From: a virus
Lineage: Duplodnaviria; Caudoviricetes
Virus record (IMG/VR): IMGVR_UViG_3300032272_000070
Location: 1-24,819 of that record
DNA: 24,819 nucleotides
Strand: one strand, 5' to 3'
The notes under the pieces were generated by a model, which was not told the origin of the DNA, made no database searches, and worked only from the letters and a program-made list of their open reading frames with translations. Position 1 is the stretch's first letter. Every line of letters begins with the position of its first letter. The translations under genes were made by a program, and so were the position numbers. This document shows positions 13,855 to 20,442 of the stretch, one piece after another.

Positions 13855-13892
13855 GTTAAATTTAACTTTAACATACCTTCCAAAGTAGTCAA
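13855..13892 (-). promoter_or_regulatory. Promoter plus palindromic operator-like site for the exported-protein gene
   Basis: TTGACT (13887-13892), 16 nt, TAAAGT (13865-13870) with TGn extension; perfect palindrome GTTAAATTTAAC at 13855-13866. Confidence 0.55.
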
Positions 13893-15406
13893 GTTTTGAA
13901 TAACTCTTTATAATTACCAGCTCGTCCAATGCTCTTACTGTGGATAGGCTGTCTGACCTGAGCCCACGATGCTGTCTTAACAACCCGGTCAGAATCATGA
14001 GGGGAATAACACTGCTCTTCAACATCGAGGCCAATATGATCAAACAGCCGGTCAACGGTGCCAACGGTATCATTGACAATCTCTTCATACTTAACATCAA
14101 GGATCTCGATACCGATTGACTTCCAATGATCAACATAACCCTGGTATGCTTTCATCTTGGCTTTAATGTCTTTCAGGTTATAAGCGTAAGGGTGTGGGCT
14201 GGCAAAGTCTGTAGTCCATATACCAACGGCCAGATCATCCTCATCACGCTGCACATTGATAAACTTAGCGCCAGGAAACATAAGGGCTAGAGAGCCAACC
14301 ATTGCAAAGTTGGCTGGCATCTTGTCAGTGAAATAACCGTCCTTAACCCCAGCACAGTCGAGATACCCAAGAGAACAGTCGGTAAGAATGTTACTATTCA
14401 GCTCCGTAAGGCTGTCACAAATAAAGGTATTCTTACCGGCACACTCAAGCTCTCCCTTCCCTTCTATCTTGGAATGGCTGGAAAGTATCTGCTCGGTCAA
14501 GCTCGTCCCTGACCGTGGCATCCCAATAATAAATATGGGAGTAGTCTCTTTTATTGCAACAGACTTATCAAGGGCTTTACTGAAGTCTTCTTTGTTAAAG
14601 ATCTCCTTCATTCCGGCCAGTGTCTTTATTTCCCGATCACTATTGTATGTGTTCTTGTAAAGCTTATTTCCACCCTCAAACACCTTGTAAGCCTCTTCAT
14701 ACCGCTTAGATTCGTCAAGAATAGCCCCAAGCGAGAACAGAATAGTCTTTCTCAGGTTGTCGCTCATCTTAGACTTAAGGGCAATCCTCATCTTCTTTAT
14801 AGCCTCATTATGTCGCCCCGCCATCTTCATAATGGTGCCCCACTGGTGGGTAGATGAAAGCGGCGGAGTATTTACATTTGAGATTAGATCCATTGCCAGG
14901 TCTTTATTCCCCTGCCTTATTTCAATGAAGGCCAGATCACAAAAGGCCTTGTCACTCATCTCTTCGTCATCGAGAAGATCATAATAGATCATCCTCGCAC
15001 CCCTGATATTGCCGAGGTTTGCCAGTGCCCCCGCCTTTACTGCTCTCACGTTTGAGTTGTCTTGGTTAAACAGGTAAGCATTACAGGCGTTGACTGCCTT
15101 TGCCATTTGGCCCATGTCGGCATAGACATTAGCCAGTTCCTTGTTGAGTTTCCAGCATCCGGCCACACTAATACAGAATACCAAGGCGCTTTCCATCGAG
15201 TCCCAGTCCTTCATCATCACAAGGTCTTCAAGTATCTCTCGCTCGGTCATAAGTCCATCATGTAGGGCCTGTGATAGAATCCTGGCACCTAACCTGAATC
15301 GGTTATCCTTCGATACCATCTTTGCCAGGCGGCGCACATCTCGCTTGGTTGGGTTCTTCTGTATCTTCTTGACCAGTTTTAGCTCAGCTTTCTTTACGCT
15401 ATTCAT
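13889..15406 (-). CDS. TPR-repeat sulfotransferase family protein, 505 aa
   Basis: 5'-PSB loop PIFIIGMPRSGTSLTEQILSSH, FTDKMPANF, YEEIV, VKTASWAQVRQPIHSKSIGR; helical TPR-like N-terminal half. Confidence 0.9.
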   Translation of the reverse strand: MNSVKKAELKLVKKIQKNPTKRDVRRLAKMVSKDNRFRLGARILSQALHDGLMTEREILEDLVMMKDWDSMESALVFCISVAGCWKLNKELANVYADMGQMAKAVNACNAYLFNQDNSNVRAVKAGALANLGNIRGARMIYYDLLDDEEMSDKAFCDLAFIEIRQGNKDLAMDLISNVNTPPLSSTHQWGTIMKMAGRHNEAIKKMRIALKSKMSDNLRKTILFSLGAILDESKRYEEAYKVFEGGNKLYKNTYNSDREIKTLAGMKEIFNKEDFSKALDKSVAIKETTPIFIIGMPRSGTSLTEQILSSHSKIEGKGELECAGKNTFICDSLTELNSNILTDCSLGYLDCAGVKDGYFTDKMPANFAMVGSLALMFPGAKFINVQRDEDDLAVGIWTTDFASPHPYAYNLKDIKAKMKAYQGYVDHWKSIGIEILDVKYEEIVNDTVGTVDRLFDHIGLDVEEQCYSPHDSDRVVKTASWAQVRQPIHSKSIGRAGNYKELFKT

Positions 15407-15418
15407 TGTTGATCTCCT

Positions 15419-17173
15419 TTACAAATATTCCTCTCCATCATCTTCCCAGTCTTCTGAGTCTTCATTGCTGTACTTCTCCCTGACCATATCAAGGTGCCTG
15501 GCCGCTGATTCATCAACACCACCGCCGAGCTTCTTTATCTCTTCCTCTCGCAGTTTCCTGATATGCTCCTTAACCTTAGTCTGTTTGGCCGAGCCCTGGA
15601 ACATTAAACAGGCCTGAAGGGCAAGACCGGCACCAATAACATGATCGTCTTTCTTCCCTTCTTCGTGGCCGAGCTTGCCGTTTTCGTGCTTGATATAGGT
15701 TGAACACTCATCAATCAAGGTAGCGCACCTCACAACTCCCTCAGTATTCTTCAGGTAAGTCTTCAAATCACCTGACAGTTCAGCCTTAGAGTTGTTGGTT
15801 TCGTTCCAGCCATAAGACTTGGTTGCCTTGTTGGTGGTTGAGTCGGCCTTGATCACAACATACTGGCGCTGCCTGTCGATCTTCAGTTTCTTAACAGTTG
15901 TCTGCCCGGCCCCGGTCTTCTCAGCACATATAACAGCATTTTGACCGGCGTTATTATAATAGTTTGCAATCGCCTTGAGGACTACAGCCCATTCGTAAGC
16001 GTCTACCCTGTTGGATGAAACCTTAGCAACAAACTCATCTGTGAGCCTATCGAACACATAACCGGTTGAATAGGTGGCACCAAGCCCTTCAGATACATCA
16101 GAGCCAATGGCATAGCGTTCTTTCCACTGAATACCGTCCCAGTCTTCATGATCCTGGTAAGGTTTAACCCAGATCTCTACAATTCCACGTTCATCTTCTT
16201 CAAAGTAATACTTGTCGGTATCTTCATCCTTGAGGACAAACCCTTTGAGCCCGTCTTCTGTCTGGTCGTGACGGACAAGGCTCTTGCCAAAATAGCTACC
16301 CAACATGGCGCTGATTGCTTCGGCTTCGGTTGTTGGGTACATGAGGCTGATATCATCTTCATCCATACCCTCAAGCTTTTTCCTTTCGATAAATGTCCGT
16401 CCCTCGCTGTCAACCTCACGGCCTGGTACACATTCCCAGTTAAGAAATAGCCGTGCAAACTTATTAAGTCCTTTCATCGAGTCGGTGTATATCTTTCTCA
16501 CCCAAGCCCACCCTGGTTTATCTTTGTTTGGATTGCTGATAACGATTAACTGACCAGCTGCATGTTCAAGTGTTGGCTTCGATGCAGCATAGATTGATTT
16601 ACAGTAACGGTTTAAGGCCGCTTCATCCAACACCAACAAGGAAACTGTCTTTGATTGACCAGCTGAAGAGGTCGGCGCTAATCCCTTGATCGTGGAGTTG
16701 AGCCCCTTTATCTTAACCTCGCCTGTCTTGGGGTCGGTGGCTTCTTCACCAAAGCAAAGGTTCAATTCATTCCGCTTATAGACTTTCGGCTTCATCCAGA
16801 TAGGAAGGTTATCAAAAACAAACTTGACCCTCTCAACAAACTCCTTGGAGAAATCCTCGTTATCGCCGGAGATGATCAGGATCAACTCATTAAAGCTGAA
16901 CATTGCTTTCCATAACACATAGCAGACAACCAGCCATGTAATGCCAAGCTGCCGGGCCTTAAGACATATCAGTAACTTATGGATTAGCAGAAGAGGAAGA
17001 ACCTCACGCTGGCTCTCCCAGAGCTTGAATGGTATCGGCTCTTCGCTCTTCCGGTCCTGGATCGTGCAGAAGTTATCAACGAAATACTCAAAGCTGTTCG
17101 CGCACTTCTCGTATTCGTCTGCGTTCCGCTGGTGTTCTGCCTTCTGTTCTTCGGTGTAGGATGGGCTAGTCAT
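15419..17173 (-). CDS. terL: Terminase large subunit, 584 aa
   Basis: Walker A LKARQLGIT, Walker B LLVLDEAA, motif III ISNP, RNase H-like nuclease IGSDVSEG...DDHVIG. Confidence 0.95.
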   Translation of the reverse strand: MTSPSYTEEQKAEHQRNADEYEKCANSFEYFVDNFCTIQDRKSEEPIPFKLWESQREVLPLLLIHKLLICLKARQLGITWLVVCYVLWKAMFSFNELILIISGDNEDFSKEFVERVKFVFDNLPIWMKPKVYKRNELNLCFGEEATDPKTGEVKIKGLNSTIKGLAPTSSAGQSKTVSLLVLDEAALNRYCKSIYAASKPTLEHAAGQLIVISNPNKDKPGWAWVRKIYTDSMKGLNKFARLFLNWECVPGREVDSEGRTFIERKKLEGMDEDDISLMYPTTEAEAISAMLGSYFGKSLVRHDQTEDGLKGFVLKDEDTDKYYFEEDERGIVEIWVKPYQDHEDWDGIQWKERYAIGSDVSEGLGATYSTGYVFDRLTDEFVAKVSSNRVDAYEWAVVLKAIANYYNNAGQNAVICAEKTGAGQTTVKKLKIDRQRQYVVIKADSTTNKATKSYGWNETNNSKAELSGDLKTYLKNTEGVVRCATLIDECSTYIKHENGKLGHEEGKKDDHVIGAGLALQACLMFQGSAKQTKVKEHIRKLREEEIKKLGGGVDESAARHLDMVREKYSNEDSEDWEDDGEEYL

Positions 17174-17685
17174 TAACTTGATGCTTGATGGTTAGCGATC
17201 TTCTCGAAAATTTCATACATAAATGGGACATAGCTATCATCCAACATAATCCTATCCTTGTTTTTCTCGTAGTATGACTGAGCTGTATCTTTAAATTTAT
17301 AACCCATTGCAGTCCAATCAACCACCATGTGAACTACATCGAGATAATTATCCACAGACTCATGGTGATGATGGTTAGCTTTCTTGTGGTTCTCCCATGC
17401 TTTATCCATTCCGCTTTCCTCCCGATCTTTTTCAGATACAGGAAAGAATGAATTTCTATATTGCACAAACTCTTCCGGCGAAAACTTAGACAGGTCATGG
17501 CACTCAACCTCTGCCTTCAAGGTAAACCATGAGAAGTCATCGCCAACCCACGGCATACCTTCACATGCATGTGTCACCTCAATAAAAGCAACCCTTACAT
17601 TTTCAAGATGCTCTTCAAGATAATCAAGGTACTCTCTAGTCTTGTCAATATAGTCCTGCCCTTTCATTCTATTTATAAACGCCAT
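17173..17685 (-). CDS. DUF5662-like HD-type metal-binding protein
   Basis: H...V, HDLSKFSPEEF..Y, AW..H...N.HH, MVVDW.AM motifs; AAAGGAG RBS favours ATG 17685 (track start 17709). Confidence 0.75.
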   Translation of the reverse strand: MAFINRMKGQDYIDKTREYLDYLEEHLENVRVAFIEVTHACEGMPWVGDDFSWFTLKAEVECHDLSKFSPEEFVQYRNSFFPVSEKDREESGMDKAWENHKKANHHHHESVDNYLDVVHMVVDWTAMGYKFKDTAQSYYEKNKDRIMLDDSYVPFMYEIFEKIANHQASS

Positions 17686-17698
17686 TACCATTCTCCTT

Positions 17699-18013
17699 TC
17701 AACTCCCATTAAGATACGGATCTAAAGATATCGGTTTCTTGTTGTTCCGGTAATCGGTGCAGTGATGGCTCCCTTTCGTTTTATTGTGGTGCTGGCAAAG
17801 GGTCTGAAGGTTCCCTATTGAATCCTTCCCGCCTAATGATCGCGGAATAATGTGGTCAACGGTAAGGTTCTGCTTGGTATGACACATTAAACACTTGTAT
17901 CCGTCACGATGGATAACAGCCTGTTTAGTTCTGACTGTGATTCTTAGCGGCTCAACGCTTGGCATCTCGGCCAGGAGCCTTGATTGTTTCGGTCTTCGGT
18001 GTTTATTGCTCAT
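17699..18013 (-). CDS. HNH endonuclease, 104 aa
   Basis: RDGYKCLMC...LTVDHIIPRSLGGKD...NLQTLC..HN..KG. Confidence 0.92.
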   Translation of the reverse strand: MSNKHRRPKQSRLLAEMPSVEPLRITVRTKQAVIHRDGYKCLMCHTKQNLTVDHIIPRSLGGKDSIGNLQTLCQHHNKTKGSHHCTDYRNNKKPISLDPYLNGS

Positions 18014-18066
18014 CTTTATCTATGTCGCCATAATATAAAATATTATTGGAGTGGCTAAAGTCTTTG

Positions 18067-18732
18067 TTATATAGCAATGCTGTCCGATACTTCGTTGCCA
18101 TAAACCGCCCACCCTTCATCCGCCTCCCTGCAAAACATTTCCAGCCTGTTAGCGCCCGGGAACCAGTCTTTAATTAAGTTTCGTATTTCGTCAGGCTTCT
18201 TGCTGTGTTTACCTCTGGTGTAGTTGTAAACGCTGGCGGTTCTTTTGCCCTGTTCTGGTGGGCTTACTTTGCCACGCACACCCACAAGTAATATCTCATG
18301 CTGCCCACGGAACCAATACCCCATTCCTATCTTGCCCTTATCCCATACGGCTTGTGTTTTATAGGTAAATCCCCAAGCCTTCATTACCGCTAGTGCCTCC
18401 AGCAATTTCGGAGCCGTTGCCCACAGGTATAAAACACAATCCTTTGCGGCAGGTATCTCCATTGCACATATTTCGGCGCATGTCATTGTGGGGTACTGGT
18501 TTTCAATTTTGCGACTATTGCTCTTGCTAAAAGAGTATTTCCAAGGTGGGTCTGCATATATCACGTTATAAGGCATCGAGACAGCAGCTATATAACCAGT
18601 AAATTCATTTGAAACCAAGGGGCGGCGTTCGGTGGCTTCAGTTCTACATCTACCGCACCGTGTTTCTTCATCCGCTTCAGTGGTCATAAAAACAATTTGG
18701 CACTTTGAACAAATTCTGCTTACATCTTTCAC
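18067..18732 (-). CDS. MT-A70-family N6-adenine methyltransferase with N-terminal CxxC-CxxC extension
   Basis: VIYADPPW, YPTM, LYLWAT, HSKKP, LEMFCRE..GW..YGNE; GTG start with GGAGGG RBS. Confidence 0.9.
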   Translation of the reverse strand: MKDVSRICSKCQIVFMTTEADEETRCGRCRTEATERRPLVSNEFTGYIAAVSMPYNVIYADPPWKYSFSKSNSRKIENQYPTMTCAEICAMEIPAAKDCVLYLWATAPKLLEALAVMKAWGFTYKTQAVWDKGKIGMGYWFRGQHEILLVGVRGKVSPPEQGKRTASVYNYTRGKHSKKPDEIRNLIKDWFPGANRLEMFCREADEGWAVYGNEVSDSIAI

Positions 18733-18779
18733 GTTATTCCCTCCTGTTCCCTTGGTTCAACTGATTAAGGGCGTTATAA
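18590..18779 (+). repeat. attC site A (190 bp, 127-nt loop)
   Basis: R'' ATATAAC (18590-96), 5 nt, AAT[T]CAtTTG[A]AACCAAGGG (18602-21) ... CCCTTGGTTCAAcTGATT (18749-66), 6 nt, R' GTTATAA (18773-79); two extrahelical bases, one mismatch. Confidence 0.82.
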
Positions 18780-19397
18780 ACCCGTAAGGCTAGGTTGGGT
18801 TTTGTTCGCAGTAAATGCGTGTTCAAAGATATGCTTTCCAAGGTTGCTATCCACACAGTTCCGCAATACTTGCCGTTTATTCTTTATCTTGCTATTGGCT
18901 ACAACTTCATACCCGTCAAAATCGCTTATTTTGTTCTTGCTCCGTATTTCTGCTTTGGCAAAGGTGCGCTGCGGGGCTGTAAAGTTGGCCCAAAAGAAAT
19001 GCCGATGAAGTTCAAAGGCAGGCTTAACCAGTGGCTCGTAATATGGTTTCACGTTTTCAACTACCCATTTCCCTTTAAAATAAGTTTGGAGAAAAACTAT
19101 TTCGCCATAAAGTTTCATGTCCGGCATTATTGGAGAAAACCCTTTTCCAATCACACCCACGTTGTGCCGGTATTGTCCGTGGCTAGGGCATGGCGGCGAA
19201 CTCCATATAAAATCAAATTCTGCAAAGTGTTCCGCAAGGTATTTGTGGGCATCACCAGCCACTACTTTGTCGCCAGGGTAAATGCTCTGGTAAACTCCCG
19301 CAATAGCTTCGTCCATTTCTACGGCGGTAACTTCGTGGTTTTCACCCCACAGCTTCCTATTGCCGCCAATTCCTGCGTACAAATTAAGTATTTTCAT
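18774..19397 (-). CDS. Short C5-cytosine DNA methyltransferase, 207 aa
   Basis: Motif I LNLYAGIGG, motif IV SPPC, motif VI VENV, RH.FW.NF, C-terminal LRNCV; AAGGAG RBS. Confidence 0.9.
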   Translation of the reverse strand: MKILNLYAGIGGNRKLWGENHEVTAVEMDEAIAGVYQSIYPGDKVVAGDAHKYLAEHFAEFDFIWSSPPCPSHGQYRHNVGVIGKGFSPIMPDMKLYGEIVFLQTYFKGKWVVENVKPYYEPLVKPAFELHRHFFWANFTAPQRTFAKAEIRSKNKISDFDGYEVVANSKIKNKRQVLRNCVDSNLGKHIFEHAFTANKTQPSLTGL

Positions 19398-19416
19398 GTG
19401 TATCGCTCCTTACGGT

Positions 19417-19474
19417 TTATAACAAAAAATTCAAGCGGACGTAAAGGCACGCCGCTTAATATCGGTCGTTATGT
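19417..19474 (+). repeat. attC site B (58 bp, classic '59-base element' size)
   Basis: TTATAAC-AAAAA-ATT[C]AAGCGG[A]CGT-AAAGGC-ACGCCGCTTAAT-ATCGGTC-GTTATGT; extrahelical C and A (G and T on the bottom strand) as in canonical attC; right spacer 7 nt rather than 6. Confidence 0.9.
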
Positions 19475-19693
19475 GCATAGCCTTTTAATAATTAATTGCC
19501 ATGCGGTTTTAATCTCAGTTTTTACATCGTCATCAATCATATCCCATTCGTGGCTCAACCCTCTCCGGTCACTTAAATCATTTATTATTTCTTCTACGGC
19601 TTGCACATAACCCGGCACTGCACCGGAATTTGCCTCGCTTGCGGCTTTTCGCAGTCCGTCCCAAAACCCACCTTCTGTGCATGTCTTTCCCAT
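19469..19693 (-). CDS. Small hypothetical phage protein, 74 aa (cassette 3 cargo)
   Basis: AGGAGG RBS at 19699-19704; helical core DLSDRRGL..EWD.ID.D...EI...W..II. Confidence 0.75.
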   Translation of the reverse strand: MGKTCTEGGFWDGLRKAASEANSGAVPGYVQAVEEIINDLSDRRGLSHEWDMIDDDVKTEIKTAWQLIIKRLCT

Positions 19694-19737
19694 TACTTCC
19701 TCCTACACGGCAAATCCCGTGAGTTAATTCGTTAATT
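19605..19737 (+). repeat. attC site C (133 bp, 74-nt loop)
   Basis: R'' ACATAAC (19605-11), 5 nt, ACT[G]CACcGGA[A]TTTGCC (19617-34) ... GGCAAATCCcGTGAGT (19709-24), 6 nt, R' GTTAATT (19731-37). Confidence 0.88.
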
Positions 19738-19768
19738 GTCCTGCTTGGCCAGATACTTTTTCCAACAT
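19724..19768 (-). other. 14-codon ORF (MLEKVSGQAGQLTN) crossing the last crossover point
   Basis: AAGGAG RBS at 19777-19782; stop lies within attC C. Confidence 0.45.
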
Positions 19769-19854
19769 TGCCAAATCTCCTTATTTAAGTTTTATCTTAA
19801 TTCAGCACAGGCCTAGGCTGAGTAAACGCCAGAGCCTACGTTTATACAACTTAC

Positions 19855-20442
19855 TTACTCTATCTCCTTCCTATTCTTGATGACAGCACTCAACAGCTCT
19901 TCAGCCGTGGTATCTCCAAGTCCTAAGTCTGTCTTCTGTAGGTTATCAATAGCATACATGCCAAGCTGCTTCGACAACTGGTCAAGGATTGGCCCCTTCT
20001 TGGCGCTCTTTATCTTGGCTACCAGTGTGACGATATCCTTGTCCCCTGGTTTACCTTTCTTAATATCAACCTCAAATCCCTCAATCGCAGCCGCCGTATC
20101 ATCGTCAAGCTCATGGATCTTCTTTAGTTCTCCGGTAGGATGATACAGCTTCCGCACATCGAAGAACGCCAGCCTTGCCTTTTCTTGCGTTATCCTTTCT
20201 CTCGTAACATCAAAGGTTTGGTAAGCTTTTGTGTCAAATTGTTGCAAAATTGTTGCAATATTAACATTCCGCAACAATCTAGCCGCAGCAGACAGGGCAG
20301 CTTTATCGCTCTTACACTTAGGATATGCGCCCTTATAGGCTTTCCAAGCAATCCGGTCTGGGTCAGCTGTCAACAAACTGATGAAACGCTGGTGTTCAGG
20401 CTTGAGTTGTTCTATCTGTTTCATTACATCTGGGTCAGTCAT
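19855..20442 (-). CDS. terS: Terminase small subunit, 195 aa
   Basis: HTH-like QRFI...AYK.AY...AAARLLRNVNI, then ARLAFFDVRKLY...LK.IHELDDDTAAAI.G.EV. Confidence 0.9.
   Translation of the reverse strand: MTDPDVMKQIEQLKPEHQRFISLLTADPDRIAWKAYKGAYPKCKSDKAALSAAARLLRNVNIATILQQFDTKAYQTFDVTRERITQEKARLAFFDVRKLYHPTGELKKIHELDDDTAAAIEGFEVDIKKGKPGDKDIVTLVAKIKSAKKGPILDQLSKQLGMYAIDNLQKTDLGLGDTTAEELLSAVIKNRKEIE

Follow-up and report, generated by a model that had tools for sequence, protein, structure and literature searches.

Three cassettes with genes antisense to their attC sites in a tailed phage: one example of a widespread mirror-polarity class in phages

Integron cassettes have been taken to have a single polarity, in which the choice of attC strand makes the genes face Pc. 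The locus described here raises the question of what three adjacent cassettes are doing in a phage when all of their genes face the other way. It lies in a 24,819-nt record from a tailed phage (Caudoviricetes; IMGVR_UViG_3300032272_000070), estimated to be 43% complete, and the whole of this stretch is referred to below as the window. Our analysis indicates that the array is real and that it is one example of a widespread phage class, for which there is a plausible cause.

Terminase subunits, a portal protein and a major capsid protein were identified in the window, and all recognized genes lie on the minus strand. The array sits between the gene for the small terminase subunit (TerS, 19855-20442, minus strand), which is upstream and transcribed in the same direction, and a group of genes encoding an HNH protein (17699-18013), a DUF5662 protein (17173-17709) and the large terminase subunit (TerL, 15419-17173, minus strand). 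Accessory genes amounting to about 2.7 kb (the array, HNH and DUF5662) part TerS from TerL within 15419-20442, and a TPR-sulfotransferase gene (13889-15406, minus strand) stands between TerL and portal. The 24.8-kb fragment, at 43% of a genome, gave no IntI match, so that the adjoining intI of a complete integron is absent and HNH occupies the place where it would stand; with three co-oriented attC sites within 1.15 kb, the locus falls under the definition of a CALIN. A search with TerS for close phage relatives gave a best match of only 38%, blastn of the array and of its second attC site against GenBank phages returned methyltransferase fragments or chance matches, Rfam gave no relevant match, and promoter and terminator scans remained at chance level.

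Cassette 1 encodes an MT-A70 family adenine methyltransferase (18067-18732, minus strand, 221 aa) with a DPPW motif, which matches PF05063 (E=8e-23) and phrog_359 and stops in the GTTA at 18066; its first 54 aa are weakly zinc-ribbon-like, below Pfam cut-offs. Cassette 2 encodes a C5 cytosine methyltransferase (Dcm; 18774-19397, minus strand, 207 aa) with PPC and ENV motifs and a match to PF00145 (E=4e-8). Its match to TIGR00675 is below the cut-off, its homologues number at least 8000 (8000 of the 8000 candidates scored), and its stop lies in the R' box of the first attC site. Cassette 3 holds a 74-aa ORF (19469-19693, minus strand) that stops in the R' box of the second site; it has no Pfam or PHROG match, and a homologue search returned itself alone. 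Residues 26-74 of this ORF resemble 55-aa viral hypothetical proteins in predicted structure, which can serve as a lead only.

It could be argued that these are bacterial sense cassettes inserted backwards, so that plus-strand ORFs, such as one of 271 aa at 18795-19610, would be the true or ancestral cargo and the phage strand would merely have been kept open. The Dcm gene is indeed scarce in TTA, CTA and TCA codons (one in 207, against 3.1% across 21 window genes); the corresponding P of about 0.002 for 200 codons applies to a single gene chosen post hoc, and the capsid gene also has a 294-codon run. We consider this explanation scarcely credible, since the frame antisense to Dcm is broken in 27 of the 27 Dcm homologues examined, the minus-strand methyltransferase products are full-length members of large families, and the plus-strand ORFs are without a Pfam or PHROG match (five were tested against Pfam, with no match at E 0.1). 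Furthermore, the three cargo genes have minus-strand coding scores of +2.7, +3.0 and +3.6, whereas all 17 plus-strand ORFs of at least 40 aa at 17-20.7 kb score negative. The custom-built coding classifier had a cross-validated AUC of 0.98 and ranked the true frame first among the six for 90-92% of 60-codon segments. The 271-aa frame runs in register opposite Dcm, crosses the second attC site and ends in the TAA of the third site's R'' box.

The attC sites all have their top strand on the plus strand. B1 (18590-18779, 190 nt) has a long loop overlapped by coding sequence, top bulges T then A, and a G|TT crossover at 18773/18774. B2 (19417-19474, 58 nt) has the canonical bulges, C and A on the top strand and G and T on the bottom, with its crossover at 19468/19469. 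B3 (19605-19737, 133 nt), the final site of the array, has top bulges G then A and its crossover at 19731/19732. In each, R'' and R' enclose paired L boxes, with 12/13, 12/12 and 12/13 stem positions paired in B1, B2 and B3. The accessible text of PMC5027507 gives a length range of 57-141 bp, which takes in B2 and B3 and leaves out B1; more than 141 nt is found in 6 of 613 strict sites.

A first, loose attC scan was too permissive, at about nine hits per shuffled window, and a strict detector took its place. This detector, designed after the sites had been seen, finds exactly three sites in the window and none in 200 shuffled windows; it recovers the published TJE1_attC2 and misses the PH101 and P12002L sites. 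Some of its matches at other loci are false and lie inside coding genes. Those few false matches, together with the permissiveness of the loose scan, are what could be said for regarding the hairpins as chance or regulatory intergenic stems with no tie to integron recombination. Three adjacent co-oriented sites with matched cassette ends, and a like architecture beside intI in other phages, make the probability of this negligible in our view. Unconstrained folding gave no significant z-scores and often failed to yield the attC fold.

The crossovers divide the plus strand into units running from TT to G: cassette 1 (18067-18773, 707 bp), cassette 2 (18774-19468, 695 bp) and cassette 3 (19469-19731, 263 bp). 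The ends of each pair with one another, with complementarity scores of 10, 10.5 and 8.5, so that the R box would be re-formed in a circle, whereas mismatched combinations score at most 5, and 10 of all 11,210 TAAC x GTTA pairings in the window score 8 or more. A fourth cassette to the right of 19731 was considered and rejected, as no complementary partner end is present further right. Long end complementarity as a speciality of phage cassettes was likewise rejected, because bacterial cassettes share it (median 7 in sense ones).

The strand expected to recombine was assigned from the extrahelical bases. According to the accessible text of Nivina 2016 (PMC5027507), these bases define the recombinogenic bottom strand; the last of them is a conserved T, and a 6-bp stem separates the bulges. 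The loose scan, unprompted, placed both extrahelical bases on the plus-strand R'' arm in all three sites (path MML). In B1, B2 and B3 alike, the last base is a T on the bottom strand and lies about 6 bp away from the first; on that strand, the first base is G in B2, A in B1 and C in B3, where the source says that it is usually G. By this definition, the minus, mRNA-like strand is the bottom strand. The position of the attC bodies, to the right of each segment and with none left of 18066, agrees with this polarity. All three genes are therefore on the bottom strand, and none lies on the attC top strand, reading toward its attC and expressible from Pc, as a gene of classical polarity would.

If the polarity had been misassigned and the plus strand recombined, these would be cassettes of the ordinary kind, in which a gene and a stop in the inverse core are followed by attC, and their attC bodies would be flipped. 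The minus-strand layout does resemble a textbook array, folding energy alone picks no strand, and B2 also receives a minus-strand score in the loose scan, though a lower one (9.0 vs 10.75). We hold this to be very improbable, given the bulges in three of three sites and the matched-end segments with their bodies on the right, and the surveys described below add three further arguments. Folding probabilities in the array favour the bottom strand over the top (0.012 vs 0.006 for B1, 0.044 vs 0.020 for B2 and 2e-4 vs 2e-5 for B3, which thus folds poorly), whereas modelled circles of cassettes 1 and 2 do not (0.021 vs 0.029 and 0.17 vs 0.31). Our folding constraints were stricter than those given in the accessible text of PMC5371416, hence the values are not comparable with values from that paper.

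The sequence-only reading had placed the three stop codons in R' boxes, and the TAA codons at 18067-69, 18774-76 and 19469-71 can indeed be read off as the TTA of a plus-strand GTTA. Two of the three lie in the R' of a full attC; the GTTA at 18066, in turn, is a left border without an attC body. The span of 18066-19474 that was proposed covers B1 and B2 but leaves cassette 3's own attC (19605-19737) outside. The mirrored layout itself stands for all three cassettes, with the genes on the minus strand by Pfam matches and coding scores and the attC top strand on the plus strand.

The left border (18018-18075, plus strand), with a crossover-like G|TTA at 18066, is a candidate attI- or attG-type insertion site. 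No strict or loose attC was found to end at this GTTA, and the border does not match a profile built from 25 attI-like sites that adjoin phage intI genes; its likeness to those sites is loose only, and 12 of 468 GTTR in the window fit that loose motif. The 58 nt, an AT-rich hairpin followed by GTTA, are found again, with three differences and next to other flanking sequence, in a 2.2-kb contig from the same run, and a search with the border motif returned a single chance match inside a gene. The border may be an insertion site, or may be a promoter for HNH and TerL.

On this evidence, we think it probable that the locus is a three-cassette array with bottom-strand genes in a one-directional phage gene run, likely cut by IntI at G|TT and likely transcribed by the phage. 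As the unit consists of TT, a reversed gene, an attC body and G, it supplies both a stop, in the TTA that follows the crossover, and a ribosome-binding site (RBS), which in each unit is found either beside R'' or inside the attC loop.

To see how general this layout is, we scanned a single attC pattern with built-in polarity in viral contigs (at least 126 loci in 43 of 64 parts) and in bacterial and archaeal genomes (167 stretches in 3 of 64 parts, rich in Lysobacteraceae). Duplicates and contig-edge sites were removed (12 of 118 viral and 38 of 309 genome sites were at edges) and, because a longest-ORF tally was noisy, genes were called with the coding classifier. The gene to the right of R' was antisense at 82 of 106 viral sites, sense at 10 and uncalled at 14; in genomes, the corresponding gene was sense at 158 of 271 sites, antisense at 43 and uncalled at 70. 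Stops mirror one another in the same way: 30 of the 82 antisense viral genes end in the R' TTA and 54 of 150 sense bacterial genes in the R'' TAA, as had been stated for ordinary cassettes. Per merged locus of at least 2 kb, 53 of 62 viral loci were antisense (7 sense, 2 mixed), against 6 of 62 genome loci (41 sense, 15 mixed; Fisher p 6e-16, the loci not being fully independent). In two of the viral antisense loci the pattern matched by chance within a portal gene, and three of the six antisense genome loci, inspected by eye, look prophage-like. Between consecutive strict sites, viral cassettes were antisense in 70 cases, sense in 9 and unclear in 11; genome cassettes were sense in 113, antisense in 38 and unclear in 72, and the antisense count is soft because the classifier errs on short genes. 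An independent PHROG check of the right-hand ORFs (129 paired ORFs) gave 12 antisense and 4 sense matches, with 2 chance matches inside portal genes. One of the sense ORFs matched is class 1 qacE.

The tally of gene against attC orientation that the sequence-only reading had called for thus bears out a distinct reverse class, with one attC pattern that is sense in bacteria and antisense in viruses, which also argues against misassigned polarity. The class is widespread in phages, but it is not universal. A 72%-identical Dcm occurs in phage-like DNA as a sense cassette reading into its attC (L008:2977-3634). In our own orientation check of the phages of Qi 2023, TJE1 is sense, PH101 is mixed and P12002L_attC1 is reversed relative to its methyltransferase genes. 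In PH101 (L421, 75.9-78.0 kb), there are cassettes in which a short sense ORF, without annotation in the record, converges with an antisense ORF, and a leader is duplicated after R'. A second attC pattern was found at only five viral loci, four of them locally reversed.

To look for signs of movement, we compared the 150 non-genome loci that have strict sites with one another by all-against-all blastn. All 12 listed breakpoints at attC fall at R', although overlapping loci repeat rows, so that the rows are not independent, and similar attC bodies bias blastn against detecting a break at R'' on the left-segment side. One reversed cassette encoding 97 aa is common to three contigs (L127, L154 and L158) with unrelated flanks; its homology extends from G|TTA, at the stop, to the GTTA of the right-hand attC, and in two of the three its left border is not an attC. 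These breakpoints at G|TT indicate that the canonical unit moves, as bottom-strand recombination would have it, and they stand against misassigned polarity. Recombination via the mRNA-like bottom strand is therefore supported, as far as shared sequence can tell. Relatives of cassette 1 in L038 and L509 are reversed cassettes with the stop in GTTA and with other attC sites and neighbours, and a further relative, in L510, also stops in GTTA. Other contigs of the window's run carry sites that resemble B2 and have an RBS and ATG in antisense next to R'' (matches of 30-letter loose ends). Most homologues lack a strict attC, which is adjacent in 2 of 37 Dcm loci and 1 of 80 MT-A70 viral loci.

These relatives bear on a rival explanation, namely that the array is an orphan relic: the reversed cassettes would be real, but a passing integrase would have placed them at an attG-like site on a single occasion, and they would since have become fixed, their long attC loops, overlapped by coding sequence, no longer recombining well. 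It is compatible with a general reversed class and differs on present mobility. The fragment holds no IntI match, the left border is unlike phage attI-like sites, B1 and B3 have low folding probabilities in the array, and no excision joint of the window's own DNA was found among the contigs of one sequencing run, possibly that of the source sample, in which contigs show presence only. Insertion at an attG site, GWT, is moreover described in the accessible text of bioRxiv 10.1101/2022.09.11.507474. We nevertheless regard a relic as the less likely explanation, because the cassette ends are still complementary and the stems nearly perfect, cassette 1 and B2 have close relatives in different surroundings, and 57% of the phage is unseen.

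The cause of the mirror was sought beside phage integron integrases. Two viral loci of the pattern scan have a run of reversed cassettes that ends in a TIGR02249 integron integrase, and the three viral IntIs tested all pass TIGR02249. An alignment search confirmed 560 viral relatives, a sample that leans to relatives of one viral IntI because that IntI led the query alignment. From the best 80 of the 560, 71 non-duplicate loci were obtained, of which 18 had too little upstream DNA and 53 could be scored. In these 53, the upstream genes are co-directional with intI in 49, mixed in three and opposite in one, L450, which is a classical ten-site array. Strict attC sites upstream in the co-directional loci have their top strand opposite intI in 21 of 21 cases, as in classical integrons (33 of the 49 loci are without a strict attC), and 9 of the 21 hold a stop in R'. 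This canonical polarity is a further argument against misassignment in the window. The gene adjoining intI ends in TAAC in 22 of 50 cases, against 52 of 633 control-locus genes. Among 29 co-directional loci checked, the two longest neighbours include a phage integrase or transposase in 16 and a terminase or portal gene in 4 (20 of 29).

Several features of these loci were noted in passing. Phage intI often adjoins the phage's own integrase gene (L422, L424, L425, L427, L429, L433, L448, L493, L497 and others), and it is near terminase genes in L447, L472 and L487. A recurrent attI-like site is present beside phage intI in L422-L501, in which a repeat resembling GTTA precedes the crossover GTTR by about 31 nt and AAT stands at -7. 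In a quick IntI tree, the class 1 IntI (L151) falls inside the viral co-directional clade (SH-aLRT 100 for 29 rows), a placement that is a hint given five bacterial rows only and a long branch.

Upstream genes that read toward intI, combined with canonical attC polarity, would most likely explain the mirror. Phage-borne integrons would keep the normal intI/attI/attC geometry while a phage promoter transcribes the array toward intI; under such transcription only bottom-strand genes would be expressed, and selection for expression would then be expected to fix bottom-strand cargo. The phage of the window could draw on this reversed pool with an IntI from its unsequenced part, a co-infecting phage or the host. 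The sequence-only reading had proposed that the reverse layout suits expression from the phage operon, and we infer from the gene order that the cargo is so expressed. A phage operon alone, however, does not require gene reversal, and the co-directional intI layout seems to be the reason. The methyltransferases would probably shield phage DNA from restriction, judging from what is known of the families and from the accessible text of Qi 2023 (PMC9892861).

Among the translation signals, Dcm has an AAGGAG RBS and ATG directly after R''. The likely start of the MT-A70 gene is a GTG at 18732 with a GGAGGG RBS inside the B1 loop (an internal ATG at 18570 is without an RBS), and the 74-aa ORF has its ATG and a GGAGG RBS within the B3 loop. 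The ORFs of cassettes 1 and 3 consequently begin in their own attC loop and read through the L''/R'' arm, and we infer that these loop starts are used. Most MT-A70 relatives start at a Met after R'', and the three closest carry differing N-terminal peptides, of which two resemble the window's arm peptide. The third, that of P0003, does not, although its MT-A70 core is 98% identical to the window's; the attC body therefore need not always accompany the gene. Side by side with window positions 18571-18732, P0002, P0003 and P0004 show near-identical cores and different N-terminal extensions, some of them Cys-rich. This comparison of sequences suggests that N-termini may be exchanged by attC loops. 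A 14-codon ORF with a strong AAGGAG RBS runs from an ATG at 19768 to a stop at 19724-26 (minus strand), inside the B3 spacer; its stop precedes the start of the 74-aa ORF by about 30 nt, and it could be a translational leader.

A large opposite-polarity population of cassettes tied to phage IntI would mean the same chemistry serving a second gene pool with a different expression logic. Reversed cassettes likely let phages swap genes within their own operons by means of an integron integrase, which could account for some of the mosaicism seen in phages (in small accessory genes and orphan methyltransferases), and in a reversed array the newest cassette would be last in the transcript rather than first. 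A bolder proposal, to which we give slightly less than an even chance, is that phages run a mirror-polarity integron system in which intI stands at the operon end, the pool is minted from ordinary phage genes, and attC loops donate RBSs, starts and N-termini to yield fusion proteins. If so, the two pools would be mutually silent, phage cassettes from a host Pc and host defence cassettes in a phage array, and IntI diversity may have long been harboured by phage lineages, a possibility raised by the placement of class 1 IntI among viral IntIs in the quick, thinly sampled tree. Since the same families occur without attC (most homologues), reversed (L018, L038 and L509) and sense (L008), models of attC gain must explain both polarities, and such sets of homologues offer a test for cassette genesis.

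Clusters of attC sites in phages have already been published. The accessible text of Qi 2023 (PMC9892861) describes phage CALINs with DNA methyltransferase cargo and without a nearby intI, and the window shares all of these features; in that study, five of six tested phage attC sites recombined with attI1, the bottom strand better than the top, and P12002L_attC1 failed to recombine. That text describes no class of genes antisense to attC and no R' stop. Nor did we find phage cargo antisense to attC described in the open-access literature, the scope of our search (including the accessible text of PMC8876359, PMC11023631, PMC13366799 and PMC8352920). Insertions at attG (SALINs; bioRxiv 10.1101/2022.09.11.507474) place cassettes at a non-att GWT site, which fits the borders at 18066 and in L127 and L154; they are ordinary cassettes in bacterial chromosomes, and the accessible text does not describe reversed cargo.

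With classical cassettes, whether class 1 or sedentary chromosomal, the window shares the R''/L''/L'/R' hairpin, the G|TT crossover, complementary ends and a pair of extrahelical bases, 6 bp from each other, of which the last is a T on the bottom strand, as set out in the accessible text of PMC5027507. The window differs in having its genes on the bottom strand, with the stop in R' rather than R'' and the start beside R'' or in the loop, and unlike classical cassettes its cassettes would be silent from Pc. Nor is the layout that of top-strand insertion, which inverts gene and attC together. Finally, the inverted-integrase integrons of Treponema (PMC3607928, PMC4889954 and PMC13323075, in their accessible text) resemble the phage loci in that intI and cargo are co-directional. 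In Treponema, intI lies on the attC strand and points to attI, an arrangement absent from the window, which has no intI match. In the phage loci, by comparison, the array is followed downstream by an intI on the strand opposite to the attC top strand (21 of 21), and it is the genes that are flipped instead.
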